A DNA stretch of 64,000 nt, taken from positions 5,241 through 69,240 of the forward strand of contig JAJYNW010000018.1 in NCBI GenBank assembly GCA_021786105.1, given 5' to 3'. The notes below the pieces were generated by a model. The model did no database searches. It worked only from the letters and a program-made list of their open reading frames with translations, and had not been told where the DNA came from. Below, piece after piece: positions 39,648 through 64,000 of the stretch (positions are counted from its first letter, which is position 1; every line of letters begins with the position of its first letter). The position numbers and the translations under genes are program-made. This stretch comes from a bacterium (GTDB lineage Bacteria > Patescibacteriota > Microgenomatia > Daviesbacterales > UBA10151).

Positions 39648-41060
39648 ATGAAGAAATTTTACATAACAACAGCCATACCATATGTCAACGGCCTACCGCA
39701 TGTTGGCCATTCTCTGGAATACTTCCAGGCTGACACGGTCAGAAGGTATCACCGACTGAAAGGCTACGATACCCTGCTTTTGTCAGGGGCGGATGAAAAC
39801 GCCTTAAAAAATGTCCAGGCGGCGGAAAAAGAAGGCCTGCCAGTCCAGCAGTTTTTAGACCGAAATTCTAAAATTTGGCACGATACTTATGAATTTTTAG
39901 GAGTGCATTTGGATGTTTTTCAACGAGGCTCGGATCAAAAAAAACATTGGCCGGGAGTACAAAAATTATGGAAACTCTGCGCCGAAAATGGAGATATTTA
40001 TAAAAAAGCATATGAAGGTTTGTATTGCGTTGGTTGCGAATCATTTAAAACTGAAGGGGAATTAGTGGACGGACTGTGTCCGATTCATCAAAAAAAACCG
40101 GAGCTAGTCAAAGAAGAAAATTATTTTTTTAAATTATCAAAATACCAGGAAAAATTAATTCAGTTAATAGAAAGCAACGAATTTAAAATTACTCCGGCCA
40201 ATAAAAAAGCCGAAGCTTTATCCTTTATCAAATCCGGTTTGGAAGATTTTAGCGTGTCCCGGTCAAACGAGCGGGCCCGGGGTGTTGGAGTGCCAGTCCC
40301 GGGCGATCCCAGCCAAAAAATTTATGTCTGGTTTGACGCTTTGGATATTTATATGACCGGCGTTGGTTTCGGCTGGGACGAAAAAGAATGGGAAAAATGG
40401 TGGCCGGCTGATTTACATATTATCGGCAAAGATATTAATAGATTTCATACAGTGTATTGGCCAGCCATGCTATTATCTGCCAAGTTGCCTTTACCAAAAC
40501 AAATCCTAATCCATGGCTTTGTTAATTTGAAGGGTGAAAAAATCAGCAAATCTGTGGGTAATGTCATCTCGCCGCAAGAAGTAGTCAAAGAATACGGGCT
40601 CGAGCCGCTTCGCTATTTTATGCTGTCACAAATCCCGATTGATGCTGACGGAGATTTTTCATACGAAAGATTTGAGGAAGTTTATAATGCCGACTTGGCT
40701 AATGGTTTAGGGAATCTGGTGGCCAGGGTGGCCAAATTAAGTGAGAAAAATAATATTTCCGGCCCCCAAACAAAACAGGTATGGAATGAAAAAGTTGAAA
40801 CATTTTTAGGACAATATCGTTTTAATGAAGCGCTCACTAGTATTTGGAAAGAAATTTCCGAGGCAGATAAAGTGATTAATCAAGAAAAACCATGGGAATT
40901 ATCAGAAGAAGCAGCCAAACCGGTTTTGGAAGGTTTGGTCAAAAGAATACAAGGTATTGCTTTTAATTTACAACCATTCCTTCCGGAAACTGCTGATAAA
41001 ATTTTGCAACAATTTTCCGGGGCCATCAAGTCTGCCCCACCACTTTTTCCCCGGCTATGA
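39648..41060 (+). CDS. metG: Methionine--tRNA ligase (short form)
   Basis: HVGH (HIGH) and KISKS (KMSKS) class I motifs, with a MetRS-type CP/zinc knuckle region (CVGCE...C). Confidence 0.92.
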   Translation: MKKFYITTAIPYVNGLPHVGHSLEYFQADTVRRYHRLKGYDTLLLSGADENALKNVQAAEKEGLPVQQFLDRNSKIWHDTYEFLGVHLDVFQRGSDQKKHWPGVQKLWKLCAENGDIYKKAYEGLYCVGCESFKTEGELVDGLCPIHQKKPELVKEENYFFKLSKYQEKLIQLIESNEFKITPANKKAEALSFIKSGLEDFSVSRSNERARGVGVPVPGDPSQKIYVWFDALDIYMTGVGFGWDEKEWEKWWPADLHIIGKDINRFHTVYWPAMLLSAKLPLPKQILIHGFVNLKGEKISKSVGNVISPQEVVKEYGLEPLRYFMLSQIPIDADGDFSYERFEEVYNADLANGLGNLVARVAKLSEKNNISGPQTKQVWNEKVETFLGQYRFNEALTSIWKEISEADKVINQEKPWELSEEAAKPVLEGLVKRIQGIAFNLQPFLPETADKILQQFSGAIKSAPPLFPRL

Positions 41061-57285: not shown

Positions 57286-58218
57286 ATGATTACCGTCACC
57301 GGCTCCCTGGCTTTTGATCACATTATGGATTATCCGGGGAAATTTTCCGATCACATCATGTCGGATAGAATTCATCAAATCAATCTGTCTTTTTTGGTCA
57401 CCACTTTAAAAAAACAAAATGGCGGCACTGCCGGCAACATTGCCTATAACCTGGCCCTTCTTAAAACTCCGGTGTCTATTGTTGGGATGGCTGGAGTTGA
57501 TTTTTTGGATTATGCCAAGTTTTTAGAAGAAGCCGGGGTGGATATTTCAAATATCCAAACTGCGAAAAATAATTTAACCTCTTCGGCCTTCATTATGACC
57601 GATCAAACAGATAATCAAATTACCGCCTTTTATCCCGGCGCCATGGAAGATACCCATAAATTATCTTTGGAAAGCATGGCGACTGATTTTGCCGTTATTT
57701 CTCCCAACAATCCCCAAGCCATGGTTAAGTTTGCGGCTGATTGCCAAAAGCAAGCCATCCCTTATATGCTAGACCCGGGTATGCAGCTGCCAGCCCTTTC
57801 TCCCGGCGATTTAAAAGACATGCTCAAAGGTGCCAAAATTTTAATCGGCAATGATTATGAAATTGCTTTGTTGAAAGAAAAGCTATTCTTATCTGACTCC
57901 CAGCTTTTAGACAAGGTCAAAATATTAATCACTACCTTAGGGGAAAAGGGTTCAGTAATTCAAACTAAAGACCAAACTTTACAAATCGATTCCGGCAAAG
58001 TTACCGAGGCTGTTGATCCCACCGGCGCCGGCGATGCTTATCGGGCCGGATTTTTGGCTGGTTTTACCAAAGGTTGGAATTTAAAGACTTGCGGGCAAAT
58101 GGGATCAATTGCCGCTTGTTTCGCAGTCGAAAAATATGGTACAACTAGCCATACATTTTCTTTGGAAGAATTTAAAAAAAGATATCAAGAGAACTTTGGA
58201 GAAGACTTAAATTTATGA
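57286..58218 (+). CDS. PfkB-family carbohydrate/nucleoside kinase (adenosine-kinase-like, given ahcY coupling)
   Basis: GG-dipeptide motif NGGTAGN and [13 protein letters not shown]. It overlaps the ahcY start by 4 nt. TATACT lies 7 nt upstream of the ATG. Confidence 0.75.
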
Positions 58219-59471
58219 AATCAGATGTAAAAGATCTAAAACTGGCGCCGAAAGGCAAACTGCGGATTGAATGGGCTGGTTCCCAGATGAAAGTGTTGGA
58301 ACTAATCAAAAAACGCTTTCAAAAAGAACAACCGCTCAAAGGGGTTAAACTGGGCGCTTGCCTGCACGTTACCGCTGAAACTGCCAACTTAATGATTGCT
58401 TTAAAGACAGGCGGAGCCGAGCTGTCTTTATGTGCCTCCAACCCTTTATCTACTCAAGATGATGTGGCCGCCTCGCTCATCGAAGATTACAACATCCCCA
58501 CTTATGCTATTAAAGGCGAGGATAAAGACACCTATTATAAACACCTAAACGAAGTCTTAGATTTTAAACCGCAAATTACCATGGATGACGGGGCTGATTT
58601 AGTCACCCTTTTACACACCGAAAGGAAAGATCAACTCAAAGATGTCATTGGTTCCTCTGAGGAAACCACCACCGGCGTCATTAGACTGCATGCCATGTTC
58701 AAAGACGGTACCTTACAAATCCCAGTGATTGCCGTTAATGATTCCAACACCAAACATATGTTTGATAACCGCTATGGTACCGGCCAATCCACCATTGACG
58801 GGATTATTCGGGCCACCAATGTGTTGCTCGCCGGCAAAAAATTTGTGGTTTGCGGTTATGGCTGGTGCGGCCGGGGGCTGGCTAGTCGAGCCAGAGGCAT
58901 GGGGGCACAGGTGGTTGTAACTGAGGTTGATCCGCTAAAAGCTTTGGAAGCTGTTATGGATGGGTTTGAGGTCATGCCTATTGCGCAGGCGGTAAAAGTT
59001 GCCGATATTATCTGCACTGCCACCGGTAATAAAGCGGTGTTATCAGTCGCACACTTTAAACAAATTAAAGATGGAGCCATTGTTTCTAACACCGGTCACT
59101 TTAACGTTGAATTTGATTATGATGGTTTGGTGAAAATTGCCAAAAGCCGACGGCATTTACGGGATAATTTGGAAGAAATTATTCTCAAAGACGGCAAAAA
59201 GATTTTTGTGTTGGGTGAAGGCCGCCTGATTAATTTAGCCTCCGCTGAAGGCCACCCGCCTGATGTGATGGATATGAGCTTTGCCAACCAGGCCTTGGCC
59301 GCCGAGTTTTTGGTCAAAAATAAAGGTAAATTAAAAGTTGATGTGTATACGGTGCCACAAGAACTGGATGATATGATTGCCCAATTAAAGCTGGAATCAT
59401 TAGGCGTCAAAATCGATACTTTGACTGCTGAACAGAAAAAATATTTATCTTCCTGGCACGAAGGCACTTAA
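58215..59471 (+). CDS. ahcY: Adenosylhomocysteinase (SAH hydrolase)
   Basis: Full-length AhcY with NAD-binding GYGWCGRG and a conserved C-terminus. Confidence 0.95.
59450..59471. repeat. 22-bp direct repeat copy 1 (TTCCTGGCACGAAGGCACTTAA), the 3' end of ahcY
   Basis: Exact copy at 60063-60084. Confidence 0.9.
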
Positions 59472-59474
59472 GTT

Positions 59475-59496
59475 GTAATTAATTACAGTATTTTTT
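59475..59496. terminator. Possible bidirectional terminator: 12-bp palindrome GTAATTAATTAC followed by a T-run
   Basis: AT-only stem, which is weak. It sits between convergent ahcY and GNAT. Confidence 0.25.
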
Positions 59497-59947
59497 CCAT
59501 ATGAATAGAAGGGAGCTTGCCTCCCTCAGAATTAACATGAAATCCCTCTTTGATCTTTCCGAATCCATGTTTTTCATAAAATTCCATTGCTGTCAAGGAA
59601 GAGTCAACCTTTAACTTCCTAACGCCCATTTTATATGCTTTTTGCTCTAAGTATGCAAGAATTTTTGCTCCTATTCCTTTCCTTAAATAATTTGCACTGA
59701 CATATATTGCGGTAATTTCATCATCTTTTAAAGAGCCTACCCCCACAATTTGGTTATTTTCAATAGCAATACAGGTAAAACGATTTTTGTCTTGCATTCT
59801 CTCTTTTACTTTTTCTTCTGTATCCGTTTTTTTCCATACCTTTATCTGTTCTGGAGAATAATCCTTTGCATTTACTTTCCTGATTGTATCCTGCGTTAGC
59901 AAACTAATTTCCCTTACTTCACTAATTTTTGCTTTTCTGATTAACAT
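59483..59947 (-). CDS. GNAT-family N-acetyltransferase
   Basis: Acetyl-CoA binding motif RKGIGAKIL. The gene is AT-rich relative to its neighbours. Confidence 0.8.
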   Translation of the reverse strand: MLIRKAKISEVREISLLTQDTIRKVNAKDYSPEQIKVWKKTDTEEKVKERMQDKNRFTCIAIENNQIVGVGSLKDDEITAIYVSANYLRKGIGAKILAYLEQKAYKMGVRKLKVDSSLTAMEFYEKHGFGKIKEGFHVNSEGGKLPSIHMEKIL

Positions 59948-60027
59948 TCTTTTAGTTTATCATCTCCAACATAAAATGTTTCATTTATCCCATGACCATG
60001 ATATGTTTGTCCAATTCTAAAAGGAGC

Positions 60028-60951
60028 TTAGCTCAAGAGCAAAAACGTTAGGTTTAACCGCATTCCTGGCACGAAGGCACTTAAATTTTTAATATATTCC
60101 GGATTTGTACCGCAACATCCGCCTATTATCTGAACCCCGCTCTTAATCCACTTTTGCGCTTCTTTTAAATAACTATCTGCTGCTTTTACTCCACCTCCCG
60201 TCCAACCCTGCACATCATCAACCCCCCCATCACCCTGGGCATAAACTCCAATAGGTAAATCAGTTAATTTTCTCAGTTTTTTCACCACTTTAGTAATAAT
60301 TCTTGGTGGCATGCAATTTAATGATATGAATAACGGTCCGTATGTTGCTATGACAGACACAGCTTTTTGCAGATCCTCTCCGCCTAACAATTGCCCCTTT
60401 GAATTACAACAAAAACTTACCGCTACCGGTATCTTTACTTTCTGTGCGGCTTGACAGACTGAAGCCGCCTCGTCAATACTAATCATAGTTTCAGCCAAAA
60501 CAAAATCTACCTCTCCTTTTTTAAGATTTCTAACATTTTCTAGATGTTCTTTTTTTAGTTCTTTAACAGGGGGCACTAAATCGGGTCTATAACAATCCTC
60601 CAAAGGAGCAATTGAGCCTCCCACCCAAGCTTGTTTACCTGATTCCCTAACTGCTTCTCTGGCTAATTTACAAGCCAATAGCGTGGCCGCTTTAGCTTTG
60701 TTTTTAAAATTAGCTTTTTTAAATGTTCTTTCTGTTGTTCTAAAGGTATTCGTCACAATAATCTGCGCCCCCGAATCAACATAATCTCTGTGGATTTGTT
60801 TAACTACCTCAGGATGTGTTAATAAAGCTTTAGCAGACCATAACGGCAGAGTGGTTCTAATGCCGCGGGCGGTAATTTCCGAACCAGTGCCTCCATTCAT
60901 TATGATAATTTGACCTGTTTTTAACAGGTTTTCCAACTGCTTAGCCGTCAT
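60028..60951 (-). CDS. Homocysteine S-methyltransferase (Hcy-binding domain, MmuM/YitJ-N-like)
   Basis: Zn ligands in GGCCGTNPEYI plus an upstream Cys. The C-terminal ~7 aa are encoded by the antisense of the 22-bp repeat. Confidence 0.85.
   Translation of the reverse strand: MTAKQLENLLKTGQIIIMNGGTGSEITARGIRTTLPLWSAKALLTHPEVVKQIHRDYVDSGAQIIVTNTFRTTERTFKKANFKNKAKAATLLACKLAREAVRESGKQAWVGGSIAPLEDCYRPDLVPPVKELKKEHLENVRNLKKGEVDFVLAETMISIDEAASVCQAAQKVKIPVAVSFCCNSKGQLLGGEDLQKAVSVIATYGPLFISLNCMPPRIITKVVKKLRKLTDLPIGVYAQGDGGVDDVQGWTGGGVKAADSYLKEAQKWIKSGVQIIGGCCGTNPEYIKNLSAFVPGMRLNLTFLLLS
60063..60084. repeat. 22-bp direct repeat copy 2
   Basis: Identical to 59450-59471. Confidence 0.9.
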
Positions 60952-60952
60952 T

Positions 60953-61867
60953 TTAACGTTTCCTCAACTGATACACAGTTAAATAATGATGTACATTTAA
61001 TTCTTCGCGTCCGCGGCCTGACGCGATACTCGCCAGTCTTCTTCTCTCAGCTTCTATTGCAGATATGGGGCTATAGAATCTATTAGCAACTAGTTCATGA
61101 AACCTTTGCCCATCATCAATCTGCGCTACCCAATGAATGCCGGTGTCCGGATCCTGTTGAATAGGCTCGGGAGTTTGAAACTGCCTCTCCACTTGCCAGC
61201 CTGTTTCAACAATCATTTTGGTTCTTATTTCTGGAGGCACTCGATCAGAAAGAATTATTAAAGCTCTCAAGCTGCTGTCTGCGGCAACTCTTAAATTATC
61301 TAAAGCAGCCGCATTCAACGTTAACCCCGGCAAATCCCAATCTCTACGATAAGAATTTAAAGTGAATGAACCATCGTATTTATCTGCTACATTTATTCCT
61401 TCGGGCGACTGAGGCAAACACATAATTACCCAACCTGATAATCTATTTCGTCCCGTAACAGGTCTAAATTTTTGCAGAAATTCAACTGCATCAGCTCGCC
61501 ATAACTCAACAGGACAATTTAGCCTAGCTGGTCCAGTAACTAAATTCACCCCAGCAGTTTGCAGCCGCCATTTTTCAATTTCTATCCCAAGCACTTCTTG
61601 TACATCATTGCCTACTTCCCTGATATTTCTGCCATCTCCAAGACCAAACTCTGTTATCGATCGACCTTTAAATCCGCCTTCTTCTCGTACCTGGCTGATA
61701 ACGCCTCTCATGAACTTACTCCAAGGATCGTCATAAGGGAAATCCACAGTTTCAAGATGTGGAAAAACTTGACCTTTAACTGTAATTTCTGTCTGCCTTA
61801 CAGGACATCCTGTAAGGCTAATCTCATTATTTGGTATATATTTTTCAATTCCTTTTTCTATTGCCAT
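60953..61867 (-). CDS. Uncharacterised class I SAM-dependent methyltransferase-fold protein (first gene downstream of the SAM riboswitch)
   Basis: Motif I ITEFGLGDGRN, post-I VLGIEIE, motif II RADAVEFL, motif III RLSGWVIMCLP. Not MetF-like. Confidence 0.5.
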   Translation of the reverse strand: MAIEKGIEKYIPNNEISLTGCPVRQTEITVKGQVFPHLETVDFPYDDPWSKFMRGVISQVREEGGFKGRSITEFGLGDGRNIREVGNDVQEVLGIEIEKWRLQTAGVNLVTGPARLNCPVELWRADAVEFLQKFRPVTGRNRLSGWVIMCLPQSPEGINVADKYDGSFTLNSYRRDWDLPGLTLNAAALDNLRVAADSSLRALIILSDRVPPEIRTKMIVETGWQVERQFQTPEPIQQDPDTGIHWVAQIDDGQRFHELVANRFYSPISAIEAERRRLASIASGRGREELNVHHYLTVYQLRKR

Positions 61868-61879
61868 ATTTTTGCCATT

Positions 61880-62061
61880 AAAAAACCTCTCTTGAAAGAG
61901 AGGTTAAATATTTTTGCCCATTTCGGACCTAATCCTCCCTTTACAGGGTTGGGTGTAGCACCTTAGGTTTGTCTAGGTTGCTGGATGGTTTCGAGCCAAT
62001 TCTCTATCTCCCGCTTTACTTTGAAGCTTTAGCGAAAGAGGCCATCACTCTTGATTCTTAA
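61880..62061 (-). promoter_or_regulatory. SAM-I (S-box) riboswitch with an intrinsic terminator/antiterminator expression platform
   Basis: Minus-strand RNA contains AAUCAAGAG (J1/2), ..GGGAGA.. (k-turn region), UGGCUCGAAACC, the P3 pair AGCAACC / GGUGCU, the P4 hairpin CCCUGUAAAGGG, and AGGAUUAGG (3' P1). The terminator is AACCUCUC-UUUCAA-GAGAGGUU + UUUUUU at 61880-61905, and AAGGGAGGAUU can pair with AACCUCUCUU as an antiterminator. Confidence 0.65.
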
Positions 62062-62080
62062 CTAATATTTAGTTGTGAAT

Positions 62081-62109
62081 TTACTTTAAAATAAATCTAA
62101 ATTTTTGTC
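62081..62109 (-). promoter_or_regulatory. Putative promoter of the riboswitch-controlled operon (-35 TTGACA, 17 nt, -10 TAAAGT)
   Basis: The minus strand reads tatTTGACAaaaatttagatttatttTAAAGT, immediately after the stop of the upstream gene. Confidence 0.35.
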
Positions 62110-62113
62110 AATA

Positions 62114-63433
62114 TTAACTATTGACGAAAAAAGGGTATATTCTTCGCATCTGGGCAAATTCATGATACCCATTTCGACCATCAAAAGCAGAATCAATGCA
62201 TCTTTTTAAAGAATTCGCCTTAACAGCTACCGTTTTTCTAGATAATTCTTCGCGCGGCCTTTGCAACAATACATGCTCAGTTCCCTCCACAATCCCGCCT
62301 GGACCATCTTTAACTGCAATAGAAATTGCAAGGAAACCGGTTTGAGTAAAACGGTCATAATGAATTGCCGCCATATAACCACCACCCACTTTCAAATCTT
62401 TAGCTGACTCTTCTTCCGGCAATTCTTCGCTAAATCGCATCCAATAATAAAGATATTCTCTAGGGTATTTACCCGCTAAATTCATAATATTTTTAAAACG
62501 ATCTTTCTTAGGCAACAACAAAGGAGTTCTGGTAACTTCTGCCCAAACTGCTTCCCTTGCCTCTTCAGATAAATCAGGGTTAGACGTAGTTTCACCAACT
62601 TTGCGGCTTTGCTGCTCGGGATTAAGATCAGTAAGAGCCTTACTAACATCAACCATCGTCTGATCCATAAATTCAGCCACTGGATGAATTAGATCTGTAA
62701 ATACACCTTTCGTTCTTAATATCCTATCCAATGGTCCTTTAATAGGAATCTGAATCCCTCTTTGGCTTACCTGAGCTGTATCTATATCCAAAAGCTGACG
62801 GATAACTGCTTGATCACCTTTCACTTGTCCGTTTACTAAAGCACGAAAGAGCATTTCGCCAAAATACTCGTTATATTCCCCTCCGTCCACTGCTGTTTTC
62901 TCTCTTTCCTTTAGTTCGCTTTTATTCACTAATTCAATGTATTCATCTCTTACCTCAGGTTGGGAAAAATCAGGCAAGCTGAAAAGCGAAAAGTGAACTT
63001 TGGTAGGGATACTTTGGTAACCACTTTGCCCAAAAGAGCGAGGCGACCAGTTCCAACCGAAATCAATAACCCGTGCTTCCGGATCCTCCAGCATGGCACT
63101 AGCCAAATTTCCCACGACAAACATCAGCGCCTCACCTTCATCAACTGGAATCTTTTCTGGACCTGGCACATAATCTCTTGTCCAACGCATAGCTTGAAAA
63201 TGATCTCCTTTAGGAGTATAGCCGCCAACGGGCGCATAAAACATCCAATCAGTGCCTGCTACATTTACCAAACATAAAGCATTTGGGGTAATTTTTTCCT
63301 GCAGATAATCATTATTCAGGCTATCTTGGGACATCAGCCTCTTCATGGGGTCGCCCAGCAAATTTAAAAAGGGGACAGTAATTTTTGCTACCTGCTTCGA
63401 CCTCTCGCCGACAACTTCCGCAACTGCTGCCAT
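62114..63433 (-). CDS. Hypothetical 439-aa soluble protein of unrecognised family (start at the ATG at 63433; the ORF-track start is TTG)
   Basis: Long ORF with coding-like composition and a CCTTGACAA promoter context upstream. I could assign no motif confidently. Confidence 0.6.
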   Translation of the reverse strand: MAAVAEVVGERSKQVAKITVPFLNLLGDPMKRLMSQDSLNNDYLQEKITPNALCLVNVAGTDWMFYAPVGGYTPKGDHFQAMRWTRDYVPGPEKIPVDEGEALMFVVGNLASAMLEDPEARVIDFGWNWSPRSFGQSGYQSIPTKVHFSLFSLPDFSQPEVRDEYIELVNKSELKEREKTAVDGGEYNEYFGEMLFRALVNGQVKGDQAVIRQLLDIDTAQVSQRGIQIPIKGPLDRILRTKGVFTDLIHPVAEFMDQTMVDVSKALTDLNPEQQSRKVGETTSNPDLSEEAREAVWAEVTRTPLLLPKKDRFKNIMNLAGKYPREYLYYWMRFSEELPEEESAKDLKVGGGYMAAIHYDRFTQTGFLAISIAVKDGPGGIVEGTEHVLLQRPREELSRKTVAVKANSLKRCIDSAFDGRNGYHEFAQMRRIYPFFVNS

Positions 63434-63564
63434 ATTTTTGGGCAAATACTATCTTTAACCTTCCTAAAATGCTTTGTCAAGGAGTATTTTATGGTAATAT
63501 TGGAAAGTATGAGATTCTTTAAGACTGAAAGTCGCAAAAAATCTACCTTAAAGATACTAATTAG

Positions 63565-64000
63565 ATGAGATTTTTTATTGCCCTGGAAATTCCGGAGGAG
63601 AATAAAGCGCAGTTCCAAGCTATTCAGGCTAGTTTGCACACATTAATTCCTCAAGCCCGGCTAACCACCCCGGACAAAATCCACCTGACTTTGACCTTTA
63701 TCGGCGAGCAACCAGATGAGCTGAAAGATAAGTTAACCCAGGTGTTGCTGGATGCGGCAACTGGCATTCCCTCTTTTGAAATCACTCCCGCCTATATTGA
63801 CGGCTTCCCTAATATTCATCATCCCCAAGTGTTGTGGGTGGGAGTCAAGGATGATATTGATAAAATTTTTATCATTCACGAGAGAATCCAAGACGGATTA
63901 GAAACATTGCATCTACCAACTGACGAAAGGCGTTTTATCCCGCATATCACTATTGCCAAATTAAACAATCAACTCTCATTTAGCGTTGATCGGAATTTGG
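63565..64000 (+). CDS. thpR: RNA 2',3'-cyclic phosphodiesterase (2H phosphoesterase, ThpR/LigT), 3'-partial
   Basis: Two H-x-T-x motifs (HLTLTF and HITIAK); it runs off the window end. Confidence 0.75.
   Translation, partial: MRFFIALEIPEENKAQFQAIQASLHTLIPQARLTTPDKIHLTLTFIGEQPDELKDKLTQVLLDAATGIPSFEITPAYIDGFPNIHHPQVLWVGVKDDIDKIFIIHERIQDGLETLHLPTDERRFIPHITIAKLNNQLSFSVDRNL

Follow-up and report, generated by a model that had tools for sequence, protein, structure and literature searches.

A stretch of 64 kb (64,000 nt) from the Patescibacteria contig JAJYNW010000018.1, called the window here and the basis of all coordinates, carries on its minus strand two neighboring genes, one for a 304-amino-acid (aa) methyltransferase of the MmtN family (60953–61867) and one for a homocysteine S-methyltransferase (HMT; 60028–60951). 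Probably, these genes form the core of the system, an operon with its own promoter and an S-adenosylmethionine (SAM)-I riboswitch of the OFF type, whose products would run an S-methylmethionine (SMM) cycle together with AhcY and an adenosine kinase encoded next to the pair. Such a cycle has been put forward before by Peng et al. (2022; Nat Commun 13:2947, PMC9135737), who described Group II MmtN enzymes from bacteria of the candidate phyla radiation (CPR), a Woesearchaeon and a rotifer; the corresponding genes often adjoin one for an HMT and, in two instances, one for a methionyl-tRNA synthetase (MetRS). A preliminary description of the window, made from the sequence alone, had regarded the locus as an undescribed methionine and SAM recycling system, a claim that the 2022 proposal of the cycle with Group II MmtN and HMT forestalls. 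We interpret the locus as a Group II-like mmtN-hmt operon of the CPR, for which the SAM-I OFF control appears to be unreported, and the feature specific to its sublineage is the juxtaposition with the adenosine kinase and AhcY genes.

Searched as a single sequence, the 304-aa protein has no match in Pfam, NCBIfam or the Protein Data Bank (PDB), and phmmer and BLASTP comparisons with MmtN are non-significant or marginal. A profile built from its family, searched with hmmsearch against the PDB, retrieved 7VVV (also 7VVW and 7VVX) at E = 1.3e-12. These entries are structures of MmtN from Roseovarius indicus, a SAM-dependent methionine S-methyltransferase of Group I (Peng et al., 2022). Alignment to the full R. 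indicus protein with hhalign gave a probability of 98.15% (E = 6e-14) over 254 columns with 21% identity, which lies below the approximately 30% quoted by Peng et al. (2022). The AlphaFold2 model of the 304-aa protein (pLDDT 95.2, pTM 0.92) led to the same family. Taking as the fold criterion a Rossmann-like domain plus a cap, as in the crystal structure, the nine best Foldseek matches in the PDB were all MmtN chains (E ~ 4e-12, TM-score 0.55–0.69), and the next class, NNMT, followed at E ~ 3e-8 and a TM-score of ~0.45. Furthermore, an exhaustive profile search of 1.8 billion representatives ties the clade both to MmtN of Group I (P0131, E = 4e-14) and to methionine S-methyltransferases (MMT) of the plant type with a length of ~1,070 aa and a C-terminal aminotransferase domain (P0162, P0171 and P0188). 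Judged by profile, fold and motif, the 304-aa protein is thus a divergent member of the MmtN/MMT family, where the preliminary description had seen a class I methyltransferase fold of no assignable family. Its 58 relatives are unannotated; the database names returned for the clade are all "hypothetical protein" or "Methyltransferase domain-containing protein", and the few named organisms belong to CPR lineages. A clade with only generic database names can now be linked to an experimentally characterized enzyme family.

The motifs DPW, ExGxGxG, CLPQ, GLxLN and Q...T are common to the 304-aa clade, Group I MmtN and the plant-type MMT. In the 304-aa protein, D47-P-W49, E73xGxG, C150-L-P-Q153 and Q238...T242 are the invariant positions, and the GxGxG signature of SAM binding is present (G75, G77, G79). 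Among the residues that contact SAM in R. indicus MmtN, the closest solved structure by both profile and fold, Asp69 corresponds to Glu96, an acidic residue located after strand beta-2 (D in 41/56 and E in 15/56 clade members), and Cys121 to the invariant Cys150 inside CLPQ. Ser101 and Leu102 align to Glu129 and Phe130, which vary in the clade; the alignment is gapped there, and these contacts are possibly made by the backbone. Two long proteins retrieved by the exhaustive profile search were considered as candidate fusions of MmtN with HMT and rejected. P0065 (632 aa) contains the MmtN-like domain twice in tandem, the second copy being degenerate (GMGAG, YLPQ), and P0076 (625 aa) combines one MmtN-like domain with a C-terminal region of ~325 aa that has no Pfam hit.

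The partner enzyme is a stand-alone, single-domain HMT of 307 aa resembling MmuM. PF02574 spans its residues 16–293 (210 bits, E = 8.6e-62), and its closest solved relative is E. coli MmuM (5DML, E = 1e-25), with which the zinc ligand Cys213 and the G-G-C279-C280 motif align. It scores 175.4 bits against the NCBIfam equivalog NF007020, below the cutoff of 215, and whether SMM, SAM or betaine is the methyl donor cannot be read from its sequence. The stop codon of the methyltransferase gene and the start codon of the HMT gene are 1 nt apart, which fits co-transcription.

The comparison of gene context covered 17 relatives' loci; L005 and L006 among them are seemingly the same sequence. Scanning genome and metagenome contigs with degenerate patterns had yielded only nine loci, and further loci were fetched protein by protein. 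Where named, the relatives are Levybacteria, Microgenomates, Roizmanbacteria and Saccharibacteria, all of the CPR. The genes for the MmtN-like enzyme and HMT are adjacent in 15/15 informative relatives, so that the arrangement is not due to chance; they occur in the order mmtN-like, hmt in 14 of these, mostly overlapping or abutting, and in reversed order in L008. In L018, a MetRS gene follows the pair directly. The locus and its relatives therefore share with Group II the CPR or DPANN host and the linkage of the gene to hmt, in some cases also to a MetRS gene, and like the published Group II loci the window encodes a stand-alone MmtN-family enzyme of ~300 aa (Peng et al., 2022). Group I mmtN, in contrast, is found with genes for dimethylsulfoniopropionate or nonribosomal peptide synthesis (Peng et al., 2022). 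For the cassette as a whole, base composition gave no clear signal of foreign DNA.

Upstream of the pair, the minus-strand leader contains, in this order, a promoter-like site, a riboswitch aptamer, a terminator and the ATG at 61867. The aptamer is a divergent SAM-I (S-box) element at 61923–62064. Rfam returned no match in the window at its gathering threshold; at permissive settings RF00162 scores 24.9 bits at 61927–62024, compared with a gathering cutoff of 44.4. At the same leader position, the relatives have SAM-I matches of 25–48 bits, of which those in L009 and L012 exceed the Rfam threshold, and altogether the element was found upstream of the pair in 12/16 relatives, the four exceptions being L001, L003, L008 and L018. 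A clade covariance model (R1), built from the aptamers of 11 relatives with the window left out, found a sole match in the 64 kb, at 62064–61923 on the minus strand (69.4 bits, E ~ 6.5e-20). In the alignment of these 11 relatives, 94.7% of the cells in helices P1–P4 of the four-way junction are paired and nine pairs have changed on both sides; none of 500 shuffles reached the observed values, and controls with slid helices were 30–46% paired. Fitted to the clade model, the window aptamer retains AAGAG, CCAGCAACC, GGUGCUA and GGAUU, and the true 5' strands of P1 and P2a (AAUC and GAUGG) lie ~31 nt further upstream than in the Rfam placement.

This displacement corresponds to an insertion of ~31 nt in the kink-turn region of P2 (about 62041–62011, minus strand), which can fold a 9-bp hairpin of its own (62039–62007) and resembles a degenerate duplication of the 5' part of the aptamer. 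The insertion is missing from the compact aptamer (102 bits) of L019, the closest relative (77% protein identity), and is therefore private to the lineage of the window; it also accounts for the low Rfam score. When the window aptamer is folded by itself, the minimum free energy structure is not that of the riboswitch (z = -0.6); the evidence for the riboswitch fold is comparative. On that evidence the SAM-I element in the window is real despite its sub-threshold Rfam score, and SAM would be its predicted ligand. Large expansions of P3 and P4 likewise push the scores of the L004 and L011 elements under the Rfam threshold. Lineage-specific insertions can hence hide real riboswitches of CPR genomes from Rfam thresholds.

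Between aptamer and start codon, an intrinsic terminator with U tract occupies 61878–61905 (hairpin 61905–61884). The hairpin, with the 9-bp stem AACCUCUCU/AGAGAGGUU, is located shortly before the ATG; L004 and L013 have a nearly identical one, and L011, L012 and L014 retain it with some bases altered. The 3' strand of the aptamer (AGGGAGG) can pair with the 5' strand of the terminator (CCUCUCU) as an antiterminator, and pairing energies were calculated for 7/12 leaders (window, L004, L005, L011, L012, L013a and L014). In the window, the antiterminator duplex (-10.3 kcal/mol) is more stable than the terminator stem (-9.0 kcal/mol), and in L011 (-13.7 kcal/mol) and L012 (-15.2 kcal/mol) the antiterminator partners co-vary. 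L014 is an exception: here the terminator stem (-9.1 kcal/mol) is the more stable of the two, and the duplex (-7.1 kcal/mol) lies close to the shuffled mean of -6.1 kcal/mol. Being mutually exclusive, the terminator and the co-varying antiterminator indicate an OFF switch of the canonical S-box type, with termination expected once SAM is bound. A sigma-70-like promoter candidate (TTGACA-17 nt-TAAAGT, 10/12 matches) is situated upstream of the riboswitch at 62083–62111 on the minus strand; such sites are not enriched in the region relative to shuffles (7 found, 10.3 expected), and by its position alone the candidate is suggestive.

Leaders of the same kind precede other genes of methionine and SAM metabolism in the relatives. 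In L007 (7790–12130) three S-box leaders follow each other, a SAM-I element before mmtN-hmt, a SAM-I/IV element before a gene for a 254-aa protein, and a SAM-I element of 62.4 bits before metK. This assigns the pair to the SAM regulon, here present in compact form within a CPR genome. In L015, a SAM-I leader of this kind precedes a gene for methylenetetrahydrofolate reductase (MTHFR). The word "riboswitch" is absent from the paper on Group II (Peng et al., 2022), and our literature search, which left most subscription journals outside its coverage, found no riboswitch linked to mmtN or the SMM cycle. As for the preliminary description, it had placed the methyltransferase and HMT genes in one transcript behind a SAM riboswitch, which agrees with the 1-nt spacing and with the score of the clade model, and it had proposed that the methyltransferase makes the methyl donor used by HMT, which gains support from MmtN/MMT family membership and from the conserved pairing. 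The homology leads to MmtN and the pairing with HMT is conserved, the reverse of the two outcomes that it had named as refuting this proposal, namely homology to an unrelated methyltransferase and a pairing not conserved in relatives.

Downstream of the pair and convergent to it, the plus strand encodes a PfkB-family kinase (57286–58218; PF00294, E = 7e-44) and AhcY (58215–59471; TIGR00936, 626.8 bits versus a cutoff of 497.6), the two genes overlapping by 4 nt. The best PDB matches of the kinase are adenosine kinases of the Mycobacterium tuberculosis type (4O1G and 2PKF, E = 4e-60, residues 2–306), in line with its earlier characterization as adenosine-kinase-like; it attained no NCBIfam equivalog cutoff and is probably an adenosine kinase.

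With these four enzymes, the following cycle can be proposed. The MmtN-like enzyme would catalyze the conversion of methionine and SAM to SMM and S-adenosylhomocysteine (SAH), and HMT would transfer one methyl group of SMM to homocysteine, forming two methionine from SMM and homocysteine. AhcY from the neighboring operon would cleave SAH to homocysteine and adenosine, and phosphorylation of adenosine to AMP by the kinase would pull the reversible hydrolase reaction forward. The riboswitch would terminate transcription of the mmtN-hmt operon when SAM is bound, so that the operon would be expressed at low SAM. Among the gene associations of Group II taken from Peng et al. (2022), the adjacency of the adenosine kinase and AhcY genes does not figure.

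AhcY followed by the kinase, convergent to the pair, occurs only in the closest sublineage, L011–L014 (57–66% identity). The PfkB-AhcY gene pair itself is kept in L013 and L015 and is partly visible in L012 and L014. L015, from a Microgenomates metagenome-assembled genome, has the same backbone as the window, with LigT, a homolog of the 439-aa protein described below, a variable position, AhcY, the kinase, VanW and SBP; the variable position is taken by the MTHFR gene in place of mmtN-hmt and the gene for a GNAT acetyltransferase. In L017 the order is LigT, mmtN, hmt, VanW and SBP, and AhcY and the kinase are absent. These layouts reveal that mmtN-hmt is a cassette within a syntenic backbone and that the adenosine kinase and AhcY genes form a separate conserved operon. 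At the edge of L017 (1–138, minus strand), a T-box leader match below threshold (32.6 versus 93 bits) is cut by the contig end.

Several points weigh against the SMM cycle as formulated above. The activity of the MmtN-like enzyme is predicted from family membership, and plain BLASTP against R. indicus MmtN covers only a 50-aa segment. Equating the clade with the Group II of Peng et al. (2022) draws on phylum, motifs and gene context and is provisional. Of the methionine-binding residues of Group I, Arg132 (in helix alpha-5) and Glu250 fall in insertions that are restricted to Group I and that the clade does not have; Glu127 corresponds to Glu156 in the window, but a glutamate stands here in only 23/56 clade members. 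The Pro169/Arg183 phosphate pocket, which in Group I is tied to oligomerization, is not conserved either and aligns to Asp176 and Asp190. With its insertion, the aptamer of the window may have little affinity for SAM or none, and the proximity of the adenosine kinase and AhcY genes, biochemically sensible as it is, may reflect inherited synteny rather than functional linkage, as L015 and L017 illustrate. Finally, by its stoichiometry a closed SMM cycle would convert SAM only to methionine and adenosine; no new methionine would be made and no homocysteine removed, so that it is not obvious how repression by SAM would serve homeostasis.

The divergence of the substrate site raises the question of whether the MmtN-like enzyme methylates an acceptor other than methionine, such as homocysteine, another thioether or thiol, or a methionine derivative, in which case the pair would not form an SMM cycle. 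In addition to the binding residues just named, the very low pairwise similarity to Group I and the only provisional identification with the assayed Group II clade speak for this. According to Peng et al. (2022), however, the residues concerned are important for binding and not essential for catalysis, and in that study five divergent CPR homologs of Group II (OGJ51966.1, OGG13690.1, MBP9710772.1, PIQ68431.1 and TSC76298.1) all had methionine S-methyltransferase activity. Moreover, the strict adjacency of HMT, whose known donors include SMM, and the MetRS gene in L018 favor methionine and SMM chemistry. We therefore regard a different acceptor as unlikely; one possibility is that the clade binds methionine in another way than Group I does.

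The direction of the regulation bears on the role of the operon rather than on its chemistry. Plants have an SMM cycle of the same two reactions, catalyzed by MMT and HMT, and the N-terminal domain of MMT is homologous to the window enzyme, but MMT is a protein of ~115 kDa with a C-terminal aminotransferase-like domain, unlike the 304-aa stand-alone enzyme. In plants, the cycle is seen as a means of controlling SAM and methionine levels. Such a valve would predict induction by SAM, whereas the leader of the window operon predicts repression by SAM, and expression under SAM limitation fits better with the recovery of methionine or the scavenging of external SMM. The Firmicute S-box regulon, with the HMT-MTHFR fusion yitJ of Bacillus subtilis and the metK leaders, uses SAM-I aptamers with terminators and antiterminators to repress methionine and SAM genes at high SAM. 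The loci studied here resemble it in that metK (L007) and MTHFR (L015) are likewise under leaders of this kind, and differ from it in that the regulated genes are a SAM-consuming methionine S-methyltransferase and a stand-alone HMT, a combination that we did not find reported under S-box control. We tentatively suggest, as a possibility that falls well short of being probable, that the SMM cycle of these CPR bacteria is part of a SAM-starvation (S-box) regulon, the opposite of the overflow-valve model adopted for Group II; its role would then be a starvation-induced conversion of SAM or scavenged SMM to methionine in organisms without MetE or MetH, together with adenosine kinase and AhcY. Whichever role applies, the widespread SAM-I OFF control of mmtN-hmt in the CPR represents a testable constraint on the purpose of the SMM cycle in bacteria that are unable to make methionine.

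Alternatively, the operon would be a scavenging device selected for HMT-driven methionine synthesis at low SAM, with imported SMM or inactive (R,S)-SAM as the methyl source, in which the MmtN-like enzyme has a secondary function in buffering or storage. A riboswitch that is OFF at high SAM is what the methionine acquisition genes of the S-box regulon have, and as calculated above the closed cycle would yield no net methionine. HMTs of the E. coli MmuM type, to which the window HMT is closest, use exogenous SMM. CPR bacteria are generally unable to make methionine (Peng et al., 2022). In the E. coli mmuPM operon, however, the HMT is paired with an SMM permease, whereas its partner in the window is the SMM-forming enzyme, and none of the loci examined has a transporter gene that accompanies the pair. 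The two genes are also translationally close and always co-inherited, which implies a shared metabolite pool. Like the methylation of another acceptor, pure scavenging thus seems improbable, and we prefer the SMM cycle under SAM-I control; the substrates and the physiological role of the operon are inferred.

The preliminary description had combined the two genes with four further ones into a single module. All six open reading frames (ORFs) of the 57286–63445 region were confirmed at their coordinates. The two without a place in the proposed cycle are the gene for the GNAT acetyltransferase (59483–59947, minus strand; PF13673/PF00583), 3' of the HMT gene, and a gene for a 439-aa protein (62114–63433, minus strand), which is located upstream of the promoter and riboswitch of the operon as a separate unit. 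For the GNAT protein, tblastn found no homolog in any locus of the relatives, and it is a neighbor whose membership of the system is not supported.

The 439-aa protein had been described as one of unknown fold. As a single sequence it has no match in Pfam, NCBIfam or the PDB, its family profile has no sequence-level match in the PDB either, and a profile search for further relatives found none beyond the six members of the family. Its predicted structure, in turn, resembles the GalT/CWF19/Apa2 branch of the HIT superfamily, and a GalT-like HIT fold can be assigned by this similarity. Neither a histidine triad nor HxHxQ is present in the protein; its single invariant histidine, His147, stands in an H-x-S/Q context. 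Homologs are encoded in two other loci, L015 and L016, both without mmtN-hmt, while most mmtN-hmt loci have no such gene. A 423-aa ORF of L013, tested as another relative, proved unrelated and was rejected.

A single dedicated and undescribed recycling module of all six genes, with those for GNAT and the 439-aa protein among them, is suggested by the location of these genes within 6 kb and by the position of the 439-aa gene, which in the window, in L015 (before MTHFR) and in L016 adjoins LigT and immediately precedes a gene controlled by a SAM riboswitch. With so few and closely related genomes, this proximity cannot be separated from synteny, and the shared backbone from LigT to VanW and SBP explains it by inheritance. 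The phylogenetic distribution also contradicts a single module, because the convergent adenosine kinase and AhcY genes are confined to L011–L014, GNAT is absent from all loci of the relatives and the 439-aa gene occurs in two loci without the pair. Furthermore, the fold of the 439-aa protein is that of a GalT-like HIT nucleotidyltransferase or phosphorylase, and the core of the system had already been published (Peng et al., 2022). We therefore consider a six-gene module very unlikely and its inclusion of the 439-aa protein not supported, and retain the two-gene operon as the core of the SMM cycle.

Other genes in the surroundings of the 439-aa gene are also related to methionine. The region from 63565 to 64000 of the window (plus strand) and beyond, together with L010 1–1303, contains genes for a LigT-type 2',5' RNA ligase/phosphoesterase, peptide deformylase and Met-tRNA formyltransferase, the latter two being methionine-related, and LigT is a constant neighbor in L011 and L015–L017. 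In L016 (3391–4778), the region 3' of the 439-aa homolog consists of a SAM-I-like element (34.2 bits) followed by an 87-aa ORF and a 285-aa ORF, the second with a hydrophobic N-terminus; neither ORF has a Pfam hit.

A better candidate for a novel component of the methionine/SAM pathway than either of the uncharacterized proteins of the window is a soluble family of ~250 aa without Pfam hit, encoded at L007 9951–10715 and L013 2578–3303 (32% identity, E ~ 1e-21). In these two distant lineages, the gene is located directly 3' of mmtN-hmt and each copy follows its own SAM riboswitch, a SAM-I/IV element at L007 9783–9919 and a SAM-I element at L013 2409–2506.

The riboswitch-mmtN-hmt cassette was also detected, with 41% identity, in L002 (CAYMJR010000001.1, 214 kb), a contig labeled "uncultured Gammaproteobacteria", where a second, weak HMT-like match lies just 3' of the cassette. 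Mis-binning or mislabeling of the contig would explain this occurrence, as would a transfer outside the CPR. Lastly, the window encodes a MetRS homolog of its own at 39648–41054 (plus strand), ~20 kb from the mmtN-hmt pair, which shares 41% identity with the MetRS of L018.

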